Part shown: piece by piece, positions 2,800-54,885 of the stretch
How the letters are laid out: every line of letters starts with the position of its first letter
Position numbering within the stretch: position 1 is the stretch's first letter
Assembly (NCBI RefSeq): GCF_003790525.1
Contig: NZ_CP033635.1
DNA: 64,000 bases
Direction: 5' to 3' (one strand)
DNA from: Escherichia coli
GTDB taxonomy: Bacteria; Pseudomonadota; Gammaproteobacteria; Enterobacterales; Enterobacteriaceae
The notes under the pieces: generated by a model
Seen by the model: only the letters and a program-made list of their open reading frames with translations
What the model was told of the DNA's origin: nothing
Database searches by the model: none
Program-made: the position numbers and the translations under genes

Positions 2800-2876
2800 G
2801 GCTACGTAGCTCAGTTGGTTAGAGCACATCACTCATAATGATGGGGTCACAGGTTCGAATCCCGTCGTAGCCACCA
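2800..2876 (+). tRNA. metT: tRNA-Met (elongator, anticodon CAT)
   Basis: 77-nt sequence GGCTACGTAGCTCAGTTGGTTAGAGCACATCACTCATAATGATGG...GTAGCCACCA with encoded CCA. Confidence 0.97.
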
Positions 2877-2884
2877 TCTTTTTT

Positions 2885-2969
2885 GCGGGAGTGGCGAAAT
2901 TGGTAGACGCACCAGATTTAGGTTCTGGCGCCGCAAGGTGTGCGAGTTCAAGTCTCGCCTCCCGCACCA
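2885..2969 (+). tRNA. leuW: tRNA-Leu (anticodon TAG), long variable arm
   Basis: 85-nt sequence GCGGGAGTGGCGAAATTGGTAGACGCACCAGATTTAGGTTCTGG...CCCGCACCA. Confidence 0.96.
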
Positions 2970-2992
2970 TTCACCAGAAAGCGTTGTACGGA

Positions 2993-3067
2993 TGGGGTAT
3001 CGCCAAGCGGTAAGGCACCGGTTTTTGATACCGGCATTCCCTGGTTCGAATCCAGGTACCCCAGCCA
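2993..3067 (+). tRNA. glnU: tRNA-Gln (anticodon TTG)
   Basis: 75-nt TGGGGTATCGCCAAGCGGTAAGGCACCGGTTTTTGATACCGG...CCCCAGCCA. Confidence 0.96.
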
Positions 3068-3101
3068 TCTTCTTCGAGTAAGCGGTTCACCGCCCGGTTA
3101 T

Positions 3102-3176
3102 TGGGGTATCGCCAAGCGGTAAGGCACCGGTTTTTGATACCGGCATTCCCTGGTTCGAATCCAGGTACCCCAGCCA
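3102..3176 (+). tRNA. glnW: tRNA-Gln (anticodon TTG), second copy
   Basis: same 75-nt sequence as 2993-3067. Confidence 0.96.
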
Positions 3177-3191
3177 TCGAAGAAACAATCT

Positions 3192-3268
3192 GGCTACGTA
3201 GCTCAGTTGGTTAGAGCACATCACTCATAATGATGGGGTCACAGGTTCGAATCCCGTCGTAGCCACCA
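3192..3268 (+). tRNA. metU: tRNA-Met (elongator, anticodon CAT), second copy
   Basis: same 77-nt sequence as 2800-2876. Confidence 0.96.
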
Positions 3269-3316
3269 AATTCTGAATGTGTCGAATATGTTCGGCAAAT
3301 TCAAAAACCAATTTGT

Positions 3317-3391
3317 TGGGGTATCGCCAAGCGGTAAGGCACCGGATTCTGATTCCGGCATTCCGAGGTTCGAATCCTCGTACCCCAGCCA
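3317..3391 (+). tRNA. glnV: tRNA-Gln (anticodon CTG)
   Basis: 75-nt TGGGGTATCGCCAAGCGGTAAGGCACCGGATTCTGATTCCGG...CCCCAGCCA; anticodon is wild-type CTG (not the supE amber-suppressor CTA). Confidence 0.96.
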
Positions 3392-3428
3392 ATTTATTCA
3401 AGACACTTACCTTGTAAGTGCACCCAGT

Positions 3429-3503
3429 TGGGGTATCGCCAAGCGGTAAGGCACCGGATTCTGATTCCGGCATTCCGAGGTTCGAATCCTCGTACCCCAG
3501 CCA
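3429..3503 (+). tRNA. glnX: tRNA-Gln (anticodon CTG), second copy
   Basis: same 75-nt sequence as 3317-3391. Confidence 0.96.
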
Positions 3504-8210: not shown

Positions 8211-9089
8211 ATGAGCGACGACAATTCACACAGTAGTGACACGATAAGCAACAAGAAGGGATTTTTCTCCCTGTTACTCAGCCAACTTTTCCACGGTGAA
8301 CCGAAAAACCGTGACGAACTGCTGGCGCTGATCCGTGATTCCGGGCAGAACGACCTTATCGACGAAGATACGCGCGATATGCTCGAAGGGGTGATGGACA
8401 TCGCAGACCAACGCGTCCGCGACATCATGATCCCCCGCTCCCAGATGATTACCCTGAAACGCAACCAGACGCTGGACGAATGCCTTGATGTCATCATTGA
8501 GTCCGCCCACTCACGTTTCCCGGTGATTAGCGAAGACAAAGATCACATTGAAGGGATTCTGATGGCGAAAGACTTGCTGCCGTTTATGCGCAGCGATGCT
8601 GAAGCCTTCAGCATGGACAAAGTGTTACGTCAGGCGGTTGTCGTTCCTGAAAGTAAGCGCGTAGACCGGATGCTGAAAGAGTTTCGCTCTCAGCGTTACC
8701 ACATGGCGATCGTCATTGACGAATTCGGTGGAGTTTCCGGTCTGGTGACCATTGAAGACATCCTGGAACTGATTGTTGGTGAGATTGAAGACGAGTATGA
8801 CGAAGAAGATGATATCGACTTCCGTCAGCTGAGTCGTCATACCTGGACCGTGCGCGCACTGGCTTCTATTGAAGACTTCAACGAAGCGTTCGGCACCCAC
8901 TTTAGCGATGAAGAGGTTGACACTATCGGTGGTCTGGTGATGCAGGCATTTGGGCATCTTCCGGCGCGTGGCGAAACCATCGACATCGACGGTTACCAGT
9001 TCAAAGTGGCGATGGCCGACAGTCGGCGTATTATTCAGGTTCATGTCAAAATCCCGGATGACTCACCCCAGCCGAAGCTGGATGAATAA
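8211..9089 (+). CDS. corC: CorC/YbeX magnesium-cobalt efflux accessory protein (CBS-pair + CorC_HlyC), 292 aa
   Basis: translation matches recalled CorC; conserved position after ybeY. Confidence 0.93.
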
Positions 9090-9113
9090 AACCGAAACTG
9101 GATAGATAACTAC

Positions 9114-10652
9114 ATGGCTTTTGCCTCATTAATTGAACGCCAGCGCATTCGCCTGCTGCTGGCGTTATTATTCGGTGCCTGCGGAACGCTGGCCTTCTCT
9201 CCTTACGACGTCTGGCCTGCGGCGATTATTTCGCTGATGGGGCTTCAGGCGTTGACCTTTAACCGCCGTCCACTCCAGTCTGCCGCTATTGGCTTTTGCT
9301 GGGGATTTGGCCTCTTTGGCAGCGGTATTAACTGGGTCTATGTCAGCATCGCGACCTTTGGCGGAATGCCTGGCCCGGTTAACATCTTCCTGGTGGTACT
9401 GCTGGCGGCGTATTTGTCGCTGTATACCGGACTGTTTGCTGGCGTGCTGTCGCGTCTGTGGCCGAAAACCACCTGGCTGCGCGTGGCGATTGCCGCCCCT
9501 GCTCTCTGGCAAGTGACCGAGTTTCTGCGCGGTTGGGTACTAACAGGCTTCCCGTGGTTACAGTTCGGCTATAGCCAGATTGATGGCCCGTTAAAAGGGC
9601 TGGCACCGCTAATGGGCGTGGAAGCCATTAACTTCCTGCTTATGATGGTTAGCGGCCTGCTGGCACTGGCGTTAGTCAAACGCAACTGGCGTCCGCTGGT
9701 GGTGGCCGTCGTGCTGTTTGCCCTACCCTTCCCGCTGCGTTACATCCAGTGGTTTACCCCGCAACCGGAGAAAACCATTCAGGTTTCGATGGTTCAGGGC
9801 GATATTCCGCAATCGCTGAAATGGGACGGAGACCAGCTACTTAATACGCTGAAGATTTACTACAACGCAACGGCACCGCTGATGGGCAAATCATCGTTGA
9901 TTATCTGGCCGGAGTCGGCGATAACCGATCTGGAAATTAATCAGCAACCGTTCCTCAAAGCACTGGACGGTGAGTTGCGCGATAAAGGTAGCTCGCTGGT
10001 AACCGGGATTGTCGACGCGCGTCTCAATAAGCAGAACCGCTACGATACCTACAACACCATCATCACACTGGGTAAAGGTGCACCGTACAGCTACGAATCA
10101 GCCGATCGCTATAACAAAAACCATCTGGTGCCGTTTGGCGAGTTTGTCCCGCTCGAGTCGATTCTGCGTCCGTTAGCACCGTTCTTTGATCTGCCGATGT
10201 CGTCGTTCAGCCGTGGGCCATATATCCAGCCGCCGCTGTCGGTAAATGGTATTGAGCTTACTGCGGCTATTTGCTACGAGATCATTCTCGGCGAGCAAGT
10301 GCGCGATAACTTCCGCCCGGATACCGACTATCTGCTGACTATCTCCAACGATGCGTGGTTTGGTAAGTCTATTGGTCCATGGCAGCACTTCCAGATGGCG
10401 CGAATGCGTGCGTTGGAGCTGGCGCGCCCACTGTTGCGCAGCACCAACAACGGCATTACGGCGGTGATTGGCCCGCAGGGTGAGATTCAGGCGATGATCC
10501 CGCAGTTCACCCGCGAGGTGTTAACCACTAATGTGACGCCGACCACCGGACTCACACCGTATGCACGTACCGGCAACTGGCCGCTGTGGGTACTGACGGC
10601 ATTGTTTGGTTTTGCCGCTGTGTTGATGAGTCTGCGTCAACGACGTAAATAA
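9114..10652 (+). CDS. lnt: apolipoprotein N-acyltransferase, 512 aa
   Basis: multi-TM N-terminus plus CN-hydrolase domain; matches recalled Lnt. Confidence 0.95.
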
Positions 10653-11048
10653 TCCCTTCTTATCGTGCCGGAATACATCCCGTATTTCGGCACGCTCGCC
10701 GGATGTGGCATCAGTGCGTTATCCGGATGACAAAATTCCCCTATCCAACTTTGGCACATCTATTGCTTTGTTATACAAGGCAAAGCTTGAACCCGCATCA
10801 GTACAACCCGGTTGCACCACAGCAATCCACCGGTAGCACCAAAAGAGTGCATTTTAAGAATTTTGCTTCGGAATGGTGCGGCGCATCTCGCAAAAACAAA
10901 CAATAAAACATCAATATCTTTACATTTAGCCAAACTAAATGTTACCTAACAAACACAACACTGCACAATAAAGTTGCAGATGATAACAACACAAACACTC
11001 ACAACGGGTATCCATGCGTTCTTAACGCAGAAGATAAAGGAGTTGGAT

Positions 11049-11957
11049 ATGCAATTACGTAAACCTGCCACAGCAATCCTGGCCCTGGCGCTTTCCGCAG
11101 GACTGGCACAGGCAGATGACGCCGCCCCGGCAGCAGGCAGTACGCTGGACAAAATCGCCAAAAACGGTGTGATTGTCGTCGGTCACCGTGAATCTTCAGT
11201 ACCTTTCTCTTATTACGACAATCAGCAAAAAGTGGTGGGTTACTCGCAGGATTACTCCAACGCCATTGTTGAAGCAGTGAAAAAGAAACTCAACAAACCG
11301 GACTTGCAGGTGAAATTGATTCCGATCACCTCACAAAACCGTATTCCGCTGCTGCAAAACGGCACTTTCGATTTTGAATGTGGTTCTACCACCAACAACG
11401 TCGAACGCCAAAAACAGGCGGCTTTCTCCGACACTATTTTCGTGGTCGGTACGCGCCTGCTGACAAAAAAAGGCGGCGATATTAAAGATTTTGCCGATCT
11501 GAAAGACAAAGCCGTCGTAGTCACTTCCGGCACCACCTCTGAAGTTTTGCTCAACAAACTGAATGAAGAGCAAAAAATGAACATGCGCATCATCAGCGCC
11601 AAAGATCACGGTGACTCTTTCCGTACCCTGGAAAGCGGTCGTGCCGTTGCCTTTATGATGGATGATGCTCTGCTGGCTGGTGAACGTGCGAAAGCGAAGA
11701 AACCAGACAACTGGGAAATCGTCGGCAAGCCGCAGTCTCAGGAAGCCTACGGTTGCATGTTGCGTAAAGACGATCCGCAGTTCAAAAAGCTGATGGATGA
11801 CACTATCGCTCAGGTGCAGACCTCCGGTGAAGCGGAAAAATGGTTTGATAAATGGTTCAAAAACCCAATTCCGCCGAAAAACCTGAACATGAATTTCGAA
11901 CTGTCGGACGAAATGAAAGCACTGTTCAAAGAACCGAATGACAAGGCACTGAACTAA
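11049..11957 (+). CDS. gltI: glutamate/aspartate ABC transporter periplasmic binding protein, 302 aa
   Basis: ATG at 11049 preceded by AAGGAG; signal peptide MQLRKPATAILALALSAGLAQA; ORF-track start at 10974 is an upstream extension. Confidence 0.93.
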   Translation: MQLRKPATAILALALSAGLAQADDAAPAAGSTLDKIAKNGVIVVGHRESSVPFSYYDNQQKVVGYSQDYSNAIVEAVKKKLNKPDLQVKLIPITSQNRIPLLQNGTFDFECGSTTNNVERQKQAAFSDTIFVVGTRLLTKKGGDIKDFADLKDKAVVVTSGTTSEVLLNKLNEEQKMNMRIISAKDHGDSFRTLESGRAVAFMMDDALLAGERAKAKKPDNWEIVGKPQSQEAYGCMLRKDDPQFKKLMDDTIAQVQTSGEAEKWFDKWFKNPIPPKNLNMNFELSDEMKALFKEPNDKALN

Positions 11958-12114
11958 TTACAAGAACCAGGGGCGGAAATTCCAGCCCTCTCGATTGTTA
12001 CGTAGCACGGACAGACTATACGCCTGATGGTCGTTCCCCATCGGGCCTGAAAACCGCAATACGCTGGGTAACAATCTTCGAGGGTAGCAGTTAACGCTGC
12101 TACCCTCTTTTTTC
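11958..12114 (+). ncRNA. sroC: SroC-type sRNA region (gltI-gltJ spacer ending at an intrinsic terminator)
   Basis: location between gltI stop and gltJ start with terminator hairpin 12080-12107 and T-run; SroC is known to derive from this spacer; exact 5' end not determinable here. Confidence 0.55.
12080..12114 (+). terminator. intrinsic terminator/attenuator within the glt operon (gagggtagcag-ttaa-cgctgctaccctc + TTTTTT)
   Basis: 11-bp perfect stem plus T-run read directly. Confidence 0.8.
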
Positions 12115-12126
12115 TGGAGTAGATTT

Positions 12127-12867
12127 ATGTCTATAGACTGGAACTGGGGTATTTTTTTACAACAAGCCCCGTTCGGCAACACCACCTATCTTGGTTGGAT
12201 CTGGAGTGGTTTTCAGGTGACGATCGCTTTGTCGATCTGCGCCTGGATTATCGCTTTCCTCGTCGGTTCATTTTTCGGCATTTTACGTACCGTTCCAAAC
12301 CGTTTTCTCTCCGGTCTGGGTACGTTGTATGTCGAACTGTTCCGCAACGTGCCGTTGATTGTGCAATTCTTTACCTGGTATCTGGTGATCCCGGAGCTGT
12401 TGCCGGAGAAAATCGGCATGTGGTTTAAGGCCGAGCTGGATCCCAATATTCAGTTTTTCCTTTCATCCATGCTCTGCCTGGGGCTGTTTACCGCCGCCCG
12501 TGTTTGCGAACAGGTACGCGCCGCGATTCAGTCGTTGCCGCGTGGGCAAAAGAATGCCGCGCTGGCAATGGGTCTGACGCTACCGCAGGCTTACCGCTAT
12601 GTACTGCTGCCTAATGCTTATCGCGTTATCGTCCCGCCGATGACCTCCGAGATGATGAACCTGGTGAAAAACTCCGCCATCGCCTCGACTATCGGTCTGG
12701 TAGATATGGCGGCGCAGGCGGGTAAATTGCTCGATTACTCAGCTCATGCCTGGGAGTCGTTTACCGCCATTACGCTTGCGTATGTGTTGATTAACGCGGT
12801 TATCATGCTGGTAATGACGCTGGTTGAACGTAAAGTTCGCCTGCCCGGCAACATGGGGGGCAAATAA
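12127..12867 (+). CDS. gltJ: glutamate/aspartate ABC transporter permease, 246 aa
   Basis: ATG 12127 with GGAG upstream; polytopic membrane protein. Confidence 0.93.
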
Positions 12868-13541
12868 TGTACGAGTTTGACTGGAGTTCCATAGTTCCTT
12901 CCCTGCCATATCTGCTCGACGGGCTGGTGATCACCCTGAAAATCACCGTCACGGCAGTCGTGATTGGTATTTTGTGGGGCACCATGCTGGCGGTGATGCG
13001 CTTGTCCAGCTTTGCGCCCGTAGCGTGGTTTGCCAAAGCCTACGTTAACGTATTCCGCTCGATTCCTTTAGTTATGGTTTTGCTGTGGTTTTACCTGATT
13101 GTGCCGGGTTTTCTGCAAAACGTGCTGGGATTATCGCCAAAAAATGATATCCGTTTAATCTCGGCGATGGTGGCGTTTTCGATGTTTGAAGCGGCCTACT
13201 ATTCAGAGATTATCCGTGCCGGTATTCAAAGTATTTCCCGTGGTCAGTCGAGCGCCGCGCTGGCGTTGGGGATGAATCACTGGCAGTCGATGAAACTGAT
13301 TATTCTGCCGCAGGCGTTCCGCGCGATGGTGCCGCTGCTGCTCACTCAGGGCATCGTACTGTTCCAGGATACCTCACTGGTGTATGTGTTATCTCTGGCC
13401 GATTTCTTCCGTACCGCCTCAACCATTGGTGAGCGTGATGGTACGCAGGTCGAGATGATCCTGTTTGCCGGGTTTGTTTATTTCGTTATTAGCCTTAGCG
13501 CATCGTTGTTGGTCAGCTACTTGAAAAGAAGGACAGCATAA
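12867..13541 (+). CDS. gltK: glutamate/aspartate ABC transporter permease, 224 aa
   Basis: TAATG overlap with gltJ; permease fold. Confidence 0.93.
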
Positions 13542-14266
13542 TGATTACCCTGAAAAATGTTTCAAAATGGTATGGTCACTTTCAGGTGCTGACCGACTGC
13601 TCAACCGAAGTGAAAAAAGGCGAAGTGGTGGTGGTTTGCGGCCCGTCTGGTTCCGGCAAATCAACGCTGATTAAAACCGTCAACGGCCTCGAACCGGTGC
13701 AGCAAGGTGAAATCACCGTCGATGGCATCGTGGTTAATGATAAGAAAACCGATCTGGCAAAGCTGCGTTCCCGCGTCGGGATGGTGTTTCAGCATTTCGA
13801 GCTGTTCCCCCATCTGTCGATTATCGAAAACCTGACCCTGGCGCAGGTGAAAGTGCTTAAACGCAATAAAGCGCCGGCTCGTGAAAAAGCATTGAAATTG
13901 CTGGAGCGCGTCGGGCTTTCCGCACATGCCAATAAGTTTCCGGCGCAGCTTTCCGGCGGCCAGCAGCAGCGAGTGGCGATCGCTCGCGCATTGTGCATGG
14001 ATCCTATTGCCATGCTGTTCGACGAACCAACGTCGGCGCTGGATCCGGAGATGATCAACGAAGTGCTGGACGTGATGGTCGAACTGGCGAACGAAGGAAT
14101 GACGATGATGGTGGTGACCCACGAAATGGGCTTTGCCCGTAAAGTGGCGAATCGGGTGATCTTTATGGACGAGGGTAAAATTGTCGAAGACTCGCCGAAA
14201 GACGCTTTCTTCGATGATCCGAAATCGGACCGCGCAAAAGACTTCCTCGCGAAAATCCTGCATTAA
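13541..14266 (+). CDS. gltL: glutamate/aspartate ABC transporter ATP-binding protein, 241 aa
   Basis: TAATG overlap with gltK; Walker [10 protein letters not shown], signature [15 protein letters not shown]. Confidence 0.95.
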
Positions 14267-14273
14267 TCACTCT

Positions 14274-14297
14274 GGCGCGCATACCCAAGTGCGCGCC
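14274..14297 (+). terminator. GC-rich hairpin downstream of gltL (ggcgcgc...gcgcgcc), weak T-tract
   Basis: inverted repeat read directly; no strong U-run. Confidence 0.3.
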
Positions 14298-14383
14298 ATC
14301 TCACGCTTTATCGTTTCGCTCCTCGTATCTGTTACATCCTGGCGGTACCCTTGTCGCAAAGAAGCACACAACAAGGAGCAACA

Positions 14384-15319
14384 ATGGCACTGCCAATTCT
14401 GTTAGATTGCGACCCAGGTCATGACGACGCTATCGCAATCGTTCTCGCCCTCGCCTCACCAGAGCTTGATGTCAAAGCAATTACGTCTTCCGCCGGAAAC
14501 CAGACACCAGAAAAAACCTTACGCAATGTTCTGTGTATGCTGACCTTGCTTAATCGCACCGATATTCCGGTAGCAAGCGGTGCGGTAAAACCATTAATGC
14601 GTGATTTGATTATCGCGGACAATGTGCACGGCGAAAGCGGTCTCGACGGCCCGGCATTACCGGAACCGACGTTCGCACCGCAAAACTGTACGGCGGTGGA
14701 GCTGATGGCGAAAACGCTGTGTGAAAGTGAGGAACCTGTCACCATTGTTTCTACCGGACCGCAAACTAACGTTGCCTTGCTGCTCAATAGCCACCCGGAA
14801 CTGCATAGCAAAATTGCCCGTATCGTGATTATGGGCGGCGCAATGGGGCTTGGTAACTGGACGCCTGCGGCTGAATTTAATATTTACGTTGACCCGGAAG
14901 CGGCAGAAATTGTCTTCCAGTCAGGGATCCCGGTGGTGATGGCCGGTCTGGATGTTACTCACAAAGCACAAATTCACGTTGAGGACACCGAGCGTTTCCG
15001 CGCCATTGGCAACCCTGTTTCAACCATTGTTGCCGAACTGCTGGATTTCTTCCTCGAATATCATAAAGACGAAAAATGGGGCTTTGTCGGCGCACCGCTG
15101 CATGACCCATGCACCATCGCCTGGCTGTTAAAACCGGAGTTGTTTACCACTGTTGAGCGCTGGGTTGGCGTGGAAACACAAGGGAAATATACCCAAGGTA
15201 TGACGGTTGTTGATTATTATTATCTGACTGGCAATAAACCGAATGCCACTGTAATGGTCGATGTTGATCGTCAGGGCTTTGTTGATTTACTGGCCGATCG
15301 TCTGAAATTTTACGCTTAA
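14384..15319 (+). CDS. rihA: pyrimidine-specific ribonucleoside hydrolase, 311 aa
   Basis: ATG 14384 with AAGGAG upstream; nucleoside hydrolase DCDPGHDD motif. Confidence 0.93.
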
Positions 15320-15402
15320 CACACGTCATTGATTAAGATCACCACGCGTTACCTGGGTGGTCTTAATCTGTTTATCTCTTTTTCTTTCAAGATATAAATG
15401 CA

Positions 15403-17073
15403 ATGGATAATGCAGAACTCGCCATTGGTATCGATCTCGGTACTACCAATAGTTTAATTGCCGTCTGGAAAGACGGTGCCGCGCAATTAATTCCAAATAA
15501 GTTCGGTGAATATTTAACACCATCCATAATTAGCATGGATGAAAATAATCATATTTTAGTCGGAAAACCGGCTGTATCACGGCGTACTTCGCATCCGGAT
15601 AAAACGGCAGCGTTATTTAAACGTGCAATGGGCAGTAATACCAACTGGCGGTTAGGCAGCGACACATTTAACGCGCCAGAACTGTCCTCTTTGGTATTAC
15701 GCTCATTAAAAGAAGATGCCGAAGAATTTCTGCAACGTCCGATTAAAGATGTGGTGATCTCCGTTCCGGCTTATTTCAGCGATGAACAACGCAAGCATAC
15801 CCGTTTAGCAGCGGAGTTAGCCGGGTTAAATGCGGTACGCTTAATTAATGAACCCACAGCAGCTGCGATGGCATATGGCCTGCATACGCAACAAAATACC
15901 CGCTCGCTGGTTTTTGATCTCGGTGGCGGCACGTTTGACGTCACGGTGCTCGAATACGCCACGCCGGTGATTGAAGTTCACGCCTCCGCTGGCGACAACT
16001 TTCTTGGCGGCGAAGATTTTACTCATATGCTGGTGGATGAAGTTTTAAAACGCGCCGCAGTGGCTAAAAACATGCTCAACGAAAGTGAGCTGGCAGCCCT
16101 GTACACCAGCGTGGAAGCGGCAAAATGTAGCAATCAATTACCGCTGCAAATTAGCTGGCAGTATCAGGAAGAAACGCGTGAGTGCGAATTTTACGAGAAC
16201 GAACTGGAAGATTTGTGGTTGCCGCTGCTCAATCGCTTGCGAGTGCCGATTGAACAGGCGTTGCGCGATGCACGTCTGAAGCCAAGTCAAATCGACAGTC
16301 TGGTGCTGGTTGGCGGCGCATCACAAATGCCGCTGGTGCAGCGAATCGCCGTGCGTCTGTTTGGCAAATTACCGTATCAAAGTTACGATCCGAGCACCAT
16401 TGTCGCGCTGGGCGCAGCAATCCAGGCCGCCTGCCGCTTACGCAGTGAAGATATTGAAGAAGTGATCCTCACTGATATTTGCCCCTACTCCTTAGGTGTT
16501 GAAGTTAACCGCCAGGGCGTTTCCGGCATTTTCTCACCGATTATTGAACGAAATACCACTGTGCCGGTGTCGCGAGTAGAAACTTACTCGACCATGCACC
16601 CGGAGCAGGATTCAATAACGATTAATGTTTATCAGGGAGAAAATCACAAAGTTAAGAATAATATACTGGTTGAATCCTTTGATGTTCCGCTGAAGAAAAC
16701 CGGGGCTTATCAGTCTATTGATATTCGCTTTAGTTATGATATTAACGGATTGCTTGAAGTTGACGTGCTTCTGGAAGACGGCAGCGTTAAGTCCAGAGTC
16801 ATTAACCACAGCCCGGTAACGTTAAGTACCCAGCAAATTGAAGAGAGTCGGGCACGGTTATCCGCATTAAAAATTTATCCGCGCGATATGCTCATCAACC
16901 GTACCTTTAAAGCCAAACTGGAAGAGTTATGGGCGCGGGCGCTGGGTGACGAGCGAGAAGAGATTGGCCGGGTAATCACCGATTTTGATGCGGCGCTGCA
17001 ATCAAACGATATGGCCCGCGTCGATGAAGTTCGTCGACGGGCGAGCGATTATTTGGCCATTGAGATCCCTTAA
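15403..17073 (+). CDS. hscC: Hsp70-family chaperone HscC, 556 aa
   Basis: Hsp70 ATPase motifs IGIDLGTTNS and DLGGGTFD. Confidence 0.93.
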   Translation: MDNAELAIGIDLGTTNSLIAVWKDGAAQLIPNKFGEYLTPSIISMDENNHILVGKPAVSRRTSHPDKTAALFKRAMGSNTNWRLGSDTFNAPELSSLVLRSLKEDAEEFLQRPIKDVVISVPAYFSDEQRKHTRLAAELAGLNAVRLINEPTAAAMAYGLHTQQNTRSLVFDLGGGTFDVTVLEYATPVIEVHASAGDNFLGGEDFTHMLVDEVLKRAAVAKNMLNESELAALYTSVEAAKCSNQLPLQISWQYQEETRECEFYENELEDLWLPLLNRLRVPIEQALRDARLKPSQIDSLVLVGGASQMPLVQRIAVRLFGKLPYQSYDPSTIVALGAAIQAACRLRSEDIEEVILTDICPYSLGVEVNRQGVSGIFSPIIERNTTVPVSRVETYSTMHPEQDSITINVYQGENHKVKNNILVESFDVPLKKTGAYQSIDIRFSYDINGLLEVDVLLEDGSVKSRVINHSPVTLSTQQIEESRARLSALKIYPRDMLINRTFKAKLEELWARALGDEREEIGRVITDFDAALQSNDMARVDEVRRRASDYLAIEIP

Positions 17074-53767: not shown

Positions 53768-53803
53768 GCCCGCCAGGTAAGCCCACCTGGCGGGCTTTTT
53801 TAT
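53768..53803 (+). terminator. intrinsic terminator after citT (gcccgccaggt-aagccc-acctggcgggc + TTTTTTAT)
   Basis: 11-bp stem and T-run. Confidence 0.8.
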
Positions 53804-54656: not shown

Positions 54657-54885
54657 TCCTCTGATTTACAAAACACGCTAATTCGTCTTCCATAAACCAT
54701 GACGATTAAGATTTATACATAATGCGCTACATTGAGGAATTCCCTGAATGTGACGCAAATCACTTCAAAGAGTGAGCAACAGTCAGTATCATCATGTGAG
54801 TTAAACCCTCGCCGCCTGACGGTGAGGGTTTTCTTTTGGGTATGTTTATCTGCGACACTCGCAGTACCGACGACATGGAGTAAAA

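Follow-up and report, generated by a model that had tools for sequence, protein, structure and literature searches.

We identified positions 11953-12115 (+ strand) of the window, a 64,000-nucleotide stretch of Escherichia coli DNA, as the sroC locus, and we regard it as virtually certain that the RNA encoded there is SroC with its published biology. The identification draws on sequence identity, family membership, fold, covariation, complementarity to GcvB and terminator anatomy, all of them observed in this analysis. The Rfam sroC model (RF00369), which an earlier sequence-only reading had named as a way to check its proposal, matches 11953-12115 on the + strand with 174.8 bits against a gathering score (GA) of 45 (E = 7.4e-37), and the match covers model positions 1-163 of 163, with no truncation. 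Over 11930-12140 the window is identical to K-12 MG1655 in 211/211 columns, and the K-12 annotation gives the same 163 nt as the ncRNA sroC, b4763, 'small regulatory RNA SroC'. The full-length family match and the 100% identity to b4763 bear out the proposal of the sequence-only reading that the hairpin ahead of gltJ is the 3' end of the mRNA-derived SroC. That reading had put the locus at 11958-12114; the RNA begins 5 nt earlier, at 11953 inside gltI, and ends at around 12115. It had also described only the 3' end of SroC; the 5' end lies within the gltI coding sequence and, according to the literature, is produced by RNase E processing and not by a promoter. Nothing in this is new, as SroC is known, annotated and experimentally characterised, and the value of the finding is correct annotation only. 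SroC is a textbook case of a sponge derived from an mRNA: it brings about the destruction of GcvB, the global regulator of amino-acid genes, and couples the operon for glutamate/aspartate transport to the other members of the GcvB regulon. The locus and the genes around it are the following:

11049-11957, + strand: gltI, periplasmic glutamate/aspartate-binding protein, first gene of the operon and host mRNA of SroC
11953-12115, + strand: SroC sRNA, 163 nt, with its 5' end within the last gltI codons and its 3' end in the T-run of the terminator
12127-12867, + strand: gltJ, ORF of 246 aa, RefSeq name gltJ
12867-13541, + strand: gltK, match to the GltK equivalog, 477 bits
13541-14266, + strand: gltL, ORF

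All four genes lie on the + strand, and the hairpin sits inside the gltI-gltJ-gltK-gltL operon. The product of gltI matches the NCBIfam model NF008063 (glutamate/aspartate ABC transporter substrate-binding protein) over its full length with 667 bits; its K-12 counterpart is b0655, and RefSeq uses the name gltI at 100% identity. The gltJ, gltK and gltL genes encode the permease and ATPase components and correspond to K-12 b0654-b0652. The gene order lnt-gltI-gltJ-gltK-gltL-rihA-hscC is that of K-12 MG1655, where it runs on the opposite strand, and sroC overlaps the final 5 nt of gltI exactly as it does in K-12 (gltI ends at 11957 and gltJ starts at 12127). With an intact sroC in place, the window is an ordinary segment of the E. 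coli chromosome (lnt-gltIJKL-rihA-hscC). The 281 nt at 11900-12180 were found between gltI and gltJ in 5421/5426 complete E. coli genomes, and in genomes that are 100% identical over this stretch RefSeq calls the flanking genes gltI and gltJ. These two genes are also the only features listed under the stretch in PGAP-annotated RefSeq genomes, so a scan relying on such annotation would miss sroC.

Regarding the 3' end, the hairpin that caught attention in the first place reads, at 12080-12113, GAGGGTAGCAG-TTAACG-CTGCTACCCTC-TTTTTT, followed by the start of gltJ:

12080-12113, + strand: putative intrinsic (Rho-independent) terminator, made of the hairpin at 12080-12107 and a run of six T; both SroC and the monocistronic gltI mRNA end here, with partial read-through according to published work (PMC4474525, PMC11347164)
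12116-12119, + strand: GGAG, Shine-Dalgarno sequence of gltJ as read from the sequence, 2 nt past the T-run and 7 nt ahead of the ATG

The arms of the hairpin form 11 perfect Watson-Crick pairs. The terminator scan counts 12, with 7 G-C pairs among them, as it includes a T·G pair (G·U in the RNA) closing the 4-nt loop TAAC. Folded alone, the hairpin reaches -22.5 kcal/mol. The run of six T (12108-12113) follows it directly, and 13 nt (CTGGAGTAGATTT, 12114-12126) separate the run from the gltJ ATG at 12127. The sequence-only reading had described exactly this, a perfect 11-bp stem followed by six T located 13 nt ahead of gltJ and inside an operon, and the description stands. Such a structure is rare: on both strands of the window, just 2 sites combine a perfect stem of 11 bp or more with a run of six T after it, and even under a looser criterion (a stem of at least 8 bp and at least five T) 200 shuffled windows gave 5 hits altogether. 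The hairpin at 12080-12113 is therefore far beyond what chance would produce. Its anatomy is that of a Rho-independent terminator, which would form the 3' end of SroC upstream of gltJ, termination itself being known from the literature. The stem and the T-run are kept in 55/57 aligned loci, and the GGAG of gltJ is conserved in the enterobacterial alignment. The terminator probably serves as an Hfq-binding 3' module too, as in other sRNAs of this kind. The second site in the window (53768-53795 on the + strand, with a T-run to about 53801) reads GCCCGCCAGGT-AAGCCC-ACCTGGCGGGC TTTTTT and is presumably an ordinary gene-end terminator.

To compare the locus across species, we scanned one genome per species for AGCACGGACNNACTATA and obtained 97 loci, which split cleanly into 58 homologous ones (local alignment score of at least 57) and 39 chance matches in unrelated phyla (score of 24 or less). 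Among the matches listed, all the homologous loci are enterobacterial (Escherichia, Salmonella, Citrobacter, Kluyvera, Klebsiella, Raoultella, Enterobacter, Kosakonia, Siccibacter and others). Two truncated loci were left out, and the remaining 56 complete loci were aligned together with the window using MAFFT, giving an alignment of 57. Two loci from Siccibacter colletis and S. turicensis (L015:3553-3729 on the - strand and L050:11876-12052 on the + strand) keep the first stem-loop, both GcvB-binding sites and the second stem-loop, and diverge completely after that, with neither a conserved terminator nor a gltJ junction. They recall the truncated, non-functional SroC homologue described in Yersinia (PMC4474525).

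The 163 nt of SroC fold much more stably than expected for their composition, with a minimum free energy (MFE) of -66.3 kcal/mol compared to -40.5±4.0 in shuffled sequences (z = -6.5; 0/200 shuffles as good). The MFE structure comprises a first stem-loop, SL1 (nt 18-37), a long interrupted helix around a second stem-loop, SL2 (nt 70-94), and the terminator hairpin, with the following positions for the two stem-loops:

11970-11989, + strand: SroC SL1 in the MFE fold, GGGGCGG...CCAGCCCU
12022-12046, + strand: SroC SL2 in the MFE fold, with a stem of 9 bp and an apical loop of 7 nt

When this E. coli structure is applied to the 57-locus alignment, 90% of the cells are paired, as opposed to 39-52% when the partners are slid by 1-3 columns, although the structure derives from one member of the alignment, which favours this count. 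Compensatory counts are less affected by that choice: both partners differ in 161 cells, compared to 54±8 when the columns of the same 57 loci are shuffled. The SL2 stem (helix 5) has 97% of its cells paired and compensatory changes in 6/9 pairs across genera, and the long helix 2 shows compensatory changes at 6/13 pairs. In SL1 (helix 1), 87% of the cells are paired over the 56 distinct sequences, and both partners have changed at 2 pairs. RNAalifold, given the MAFFT alignment in its raw form, independently found SL2 and the terminator but neither the long helix 2 nor SL1; these two helices are supported by counting pairs on the MFE structure of E. coli. The REP consensus is GCCKGATG...ATCMGGCCTAC, and the SL2 arms of Escherichia (12022-12050, + strand; GCCTGATGG...CCATCGGGCCTG) superficially resemble its ends. 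This likeness is probably a coincidence, since the stem covaries to unrelated sequences in other genera.

Besides its own fold, SroC presents two sites complementary to GcvB. The gcvB gene lies outside the window, so we used the K-12 gcvB as a stand-in:

12009-12016, + strand: GcvB-binding site 1 (BS1), GGACAGAC, SroC nt 57-64, pairing with GcvB nt 156-163 (R3/SL4)
12031-12037, + strand: GcvB-binding site 2 (BS2), UCGUUCC, SroC nt 79-85, in the apical loop of SL2, pairing with GcvB nt 13-19 (SL1)

BS1 occupies an internal bulge of the fold and forms 8 Watson-Crick pairs with GcvB (-15.3 kcal/mol), with SroC C60 opposite GcvB G160. BS2 forms 7 Watson-Crick pairs, with SroC C84 opposite GcvB G14, and sits exposed in the 7-nt apical loop of SL2, within conserved structure; structure probing also places it at the tip of SL2 (PMC4474525), in agreement with the present fold. 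The two sites are 14 nt apart, as published (PMC4474525). In that work compensatory mutations validated the pairs C63/G160 and C87/G14, which correspond to C60 and C84 here with an offset of 3. The BS2 core, CGTTCCCC, is invariant in 57/57 loci and is absent from the pattern used to collect them; the first base of the BS2 loop is C instead of T in two Siccibacter loci only. The invariance of BS1 is partly forced, because the search pattern contained BS1.

Perfect complementary 7-mers between SroC and GcvB amount to 6 windows compared to a mean of 1.8 in shuffles (p≈0.04), and for 8-mers the value is p≈0.11. Pairing the whole molecules with RNAduplex gave -78.8, inside the range of the shuffles (81/300 as good), and is uninformative given that score and the fact that it ignores intramolecular structure, so we relied on site-by-site pairing instead. 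Short complementarities of this kind are not compelling alone, hence the functional assignment rests on published genetics together with sequence identity. Given its identity to the K-12 sRNA, this SroC should destabilise GcvB in trans in an Hfq-dependent manner. Its designation as a GcvB sponge in the sequence-only reading agrees with the literature (PMC4474525, PMC9299463).

GcvB also has a target at the other end of the host mRNA:

10971-11008, + strand: GcvB target in the gltI 5' UTR, C/A-rich and complementary to the GU-rich R1 of GcvB

RNAduplex pairs this stretch with nt 61-95 of K-12 GcvB at -38.2 kcal/mol. We take it to be the site known both for repression by GcvB and as a translational enhancer of gltI. 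A GcvB site in the gltI 5' UTR, at which GcvB represses gltI, has been described (PMC4474525).

The 5' end of SroC is set at 11953 by both K-12 and Rfam. The residue numbering of the Salmonella study (PMC4474525) is offset by 3 and implies an end 3 nt further upstream, so the position is uncertain by about 3 nt. We found no sigma-70-like promoter on the + strand between 9000 and 16000. In published work the 5' end carries a monophosphate and has no transcription start site (PMC4474525), generation of the correct end by RNase E requires Hfq and a 5' monophosphate substrate (PMC4474525, Salmonella), and in E. coli the RNase E site that stands out most in TIER-seq over the 3' region of gltI coincides exactly with the SroC 5' end (PMC11347164). 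Carried over by identity, these results suggest that the SroC of the window likewise owes a 5' monophosphate end to RNase E processing of the gltI mRNA and has no promoter of its own.

How often transcription terminates, the processing by RNase E, the dependence on Hfq, the decay of GcvB and the targets MgrR and fliE/flhBAE are taken from published experiments, which should apply here. Miyakoshi, Chao & Vogel 2015 (PMC4474525) described a 'leaky Rho-independent terminator' that yields a monocistronic gltI mRNA and SroC, and Northern blots from E. coli in a 2024 study showed a gltI-sroC transcript of about 1200 nt and a read-through transcript of about 2500 nt (PMC11347164). The sequence-only reading had proposed partial termination and discoordinate expression of gltI versus gltJKL, and both studies agree with it. 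In Salmonella and in E. coli, SroC has been reported to destabilise GcvB in trans in dependence on Hfq (PMC4474525, PMC9299463, PMC10250213), and RNase E carries out this decay (PMC4474525). GcvB has a half-life of 1.7 min with SroC and of more than 15 min without it (PMC4474525); the half-life of SroC in E. coli exceeds 16 min, and GcvB decay has been shown there too (PMC10250213). RIL-seq and CLASH data from E. coli list sroC as a GcvB sponge, and in stationary phase up to about 70% of the GcvB chimeric reads are with SroC (PMC9299463). MgrR and fliE/flhBAE have been reported as further targets (PMC9438474, a review). The main text of Adams et al. 2021, a 3'-end mapping study in E. coli, makes no mention of sroC, gltI or gltJ.

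In the mechanism that we propose on these grounds, transcription from a single gltI promoter would mostly stop at 12080-12113 and give the monocistronic gltI mRNA, while some polymerases would read through and give the gltIJKL mRNA, the only transcripts from which gltJKL would be expressed. With read-through limited to a fraction, more GltI would be made than membrane and ATPase subunits. RNase E, which Hfq would guide and which would require a 5' monophosphate, would degrade the gltI mRNA from its 5' side, halt at about 11953 and leave SroC as a very stable, tightly folded product of 163 nt. On Hfq, the GGACAGAC bulge and the UCGUUCC loop of SroC would pair with the distant nt 156-163 and nt 13-19 of GcvB, and this pairing would trigger RNase E cleavage of GcvB, with SroC surviving. 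Loss of GcvB would derepress its large regulon of amino-acid transport and metabolism genes, gltI included, and since the gltI 5' UTR carries a GcvB site (10971-11008), the feedback loop would be closed.

One could argue that the hairpin acts purely in cis, setting the GltI:GltJKL ratio as an intercistronic terminator or attenuator, and that the 160-nt fragment is an inert by-product of decay. The terminator anatomy and its place ahead of gltJ fit this explanation, and a contribution in cis to discoordinate expression does exist and has been reported (PMC4474525). However, the 125 nt upstream of the hairpin would then need no conservation, yet SL2 covaries and its loop core is invariant across genera. 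Furthermore, compensatory mutations, an sroC-only deletion and SroC supplied from a plasmid all alter GcvB stability in trans (PMC4474525, PMC10250213), which refutes a cis-only role as a complete explanation and leaves us considering it very improbable. We give even less credence to the ideas that the minus strand of the spacer codes for a small protein (12185-11958, 75 aa) or that SroC is an independently transcribed sRNA with its own promoter. There is indeed a GTG-initiated minus-strand ORF of 75 aa at 11958-12185, antisense to the entire spacer and the gltJ start, but between genera its frame is broken by indels of 7 nt and 9-10 nt while the RNA structure is preserved, which argues that the ORF is spurious. 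A separate promoter is made unlikely by the lack of any sigma-70-like candidate on the + strand in the 9000-16000 interval and by the monophosphate end, with no start site, reported for SroC (PMC4474525).

A different reading, which we consider unlikely, is that the hairpin works as a regulated attenuator or riboswitch-like switch, in which the conserved upstream sequence would serve as an antiterminator or factor site and tune gltJKL read-through and SroC release. Miyakoshi et al. raised this possibility explicitly, with a trans-acting factor regulating termination at the gltI-gltJ hairpin (PMC4474525), and two near-invariant stretches outside the GcvB contacts, CCCTCTCGATTG and ATCTTCGAGGGTAG, would be in line with it. 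Besides, a fold in which the 3' arm of the terminator was kept from pairing joined nt 125-133 to nt 14-16 and 38-42. This alternative pairing nevertheless gains only about 2.5 kcal/mol (from -43.6 to -46.1), compared to -22.5 for the terminator hairpin, and touches just the first few bases of the stem, while in most genera the terminator stem starts after them. The conserved stretches are also mostly accounted for as arms of the long helix 2 and of SL1. Neither folding of successive prefixes nor blocking of the 3' arm revealed an antiterminator of comparable stability over the 5' arm of the terminator. The ORF list shows no evident leader ORF in the spacer, and no other Rfam family, riboswitches included, reaches gathering score there. 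As the weak alternative fold was all that the two folding approaches brought out, a classical attenuator was rejected. The 'attenuator hairpin' of the sequence-only reading is accordingly right about a strong terminator and overstated in implying a regulated switch, as we found no credible antiterminator structure. In its specific form, the proposal would be that termination between gltI and gltJ is actively regulated through CCCUCUCGAUUG and AUCUUCGAGGGUAG, almost invariant and outside the GcvB contacts, by a factor or an alternative fold, so as to balance gltJKL read-through against SroC release, and that stem lengthening in Escherichia has reset this balance; we hold this to be improbable. 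The folding check gives regulated termination little support, and a mechanism mediated by a protein or an sRNA would be compatible with it.

Returning to the identification as sroC, the locus does not differ from K-12 b4763 in any respect: it has the same spacer, strand, 163-nt length, SL1, SL2, terminator and GcvB sites. Compared to Salmonella, Citrobacter, Klebsiella and Enterobacter, the SroC of Escherichia has some 9-10 extra nt in the loop region of the terminator, as a result of which its stem reaches 11-12 bp as opposed to 6-8 bp. The insertion lies at 12090-12098 (alignment columns 146-154), and Kluyvera has a similar one, though its loop differs in sequence. Most other Enterobacteriaceae have the stem of 6-8 bp, and the terminator reads GGGTAGC-GCT-GCTACCC in Salmonella, Citrobacter, Klebsiella, Enterobacter and Kosakonia. 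The perfect 11-bp stem is thus the long variant of the SroC-family terminator, seen in this alignment in Escherichia and Kluyvera.

SroC shares with other 3'-UTR-derived Hfq sRNAs (CpxQ, SdhX, NarS, OppZ and GlnZ) the use of the host terminator as its 3' end, a 5' monophosphate end made by RNase E, the lack of its own promoter and the dependence on Hfq (PMC9438474). It differs from them in that its terminator is operon-internal, instead of located at the end of the transcription unit, and in that its main target is an sRNA, destroyed by sponge or decoy action, and not an mRNA. Intercistronic stabiliser hairpins or REP elements of the malE-malF type likewise stand directly after a first gene encoding a periplasmic binding protein and are associated with an excess of binding-protein mRNA. 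However, these act as a barrier to 3' exonucleases in a full-length transcript, whereas the gltI-gltJ structure is a leaky intrinsic terminator made of a hairpin and six T (PMC4474525).

Upstream of the operon, the lnt-gltI intergenic region (10653-11048) contains an uninterrupted CTAA target at 10946-10949. K-12 MG1655 has IS5D (1195 bp) at this point, some 100 nt before the gltI ATG and immediately 5' of the GcvB target site, and two SNPs adjoin the CTAA target (CAGGCACAAC in K-12 versus CAAACACAAC in the window). The absence of IS5D at an intact CTAA, together with the adjoining SNPs, indicates that the strain is not K-12. The gltI promoter region of the window is in the ancestral state.

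Finally, the Rfam search returned other RNA features in the window. On the minus strand, 41305-41753 matches the cspA thermoregulator with 136 bits (GA 78); by comparison with the K-12 map, the paralogue cspE is expected here, and as much of the alignment covers coding sequence, the match may reflect homology of the cold-shock-protein gene and not a thermosensor. Also on the minus strand, 58603-58696 matches STnc70 with 44.1 bits, barely over the GA of 40, with 94 nt matched of a 149-position model. On the plus strand, we detected an rnk leader at 54732-54840 (124.9 bits) and a cluster of seven tRNA genes at 2800-3500.
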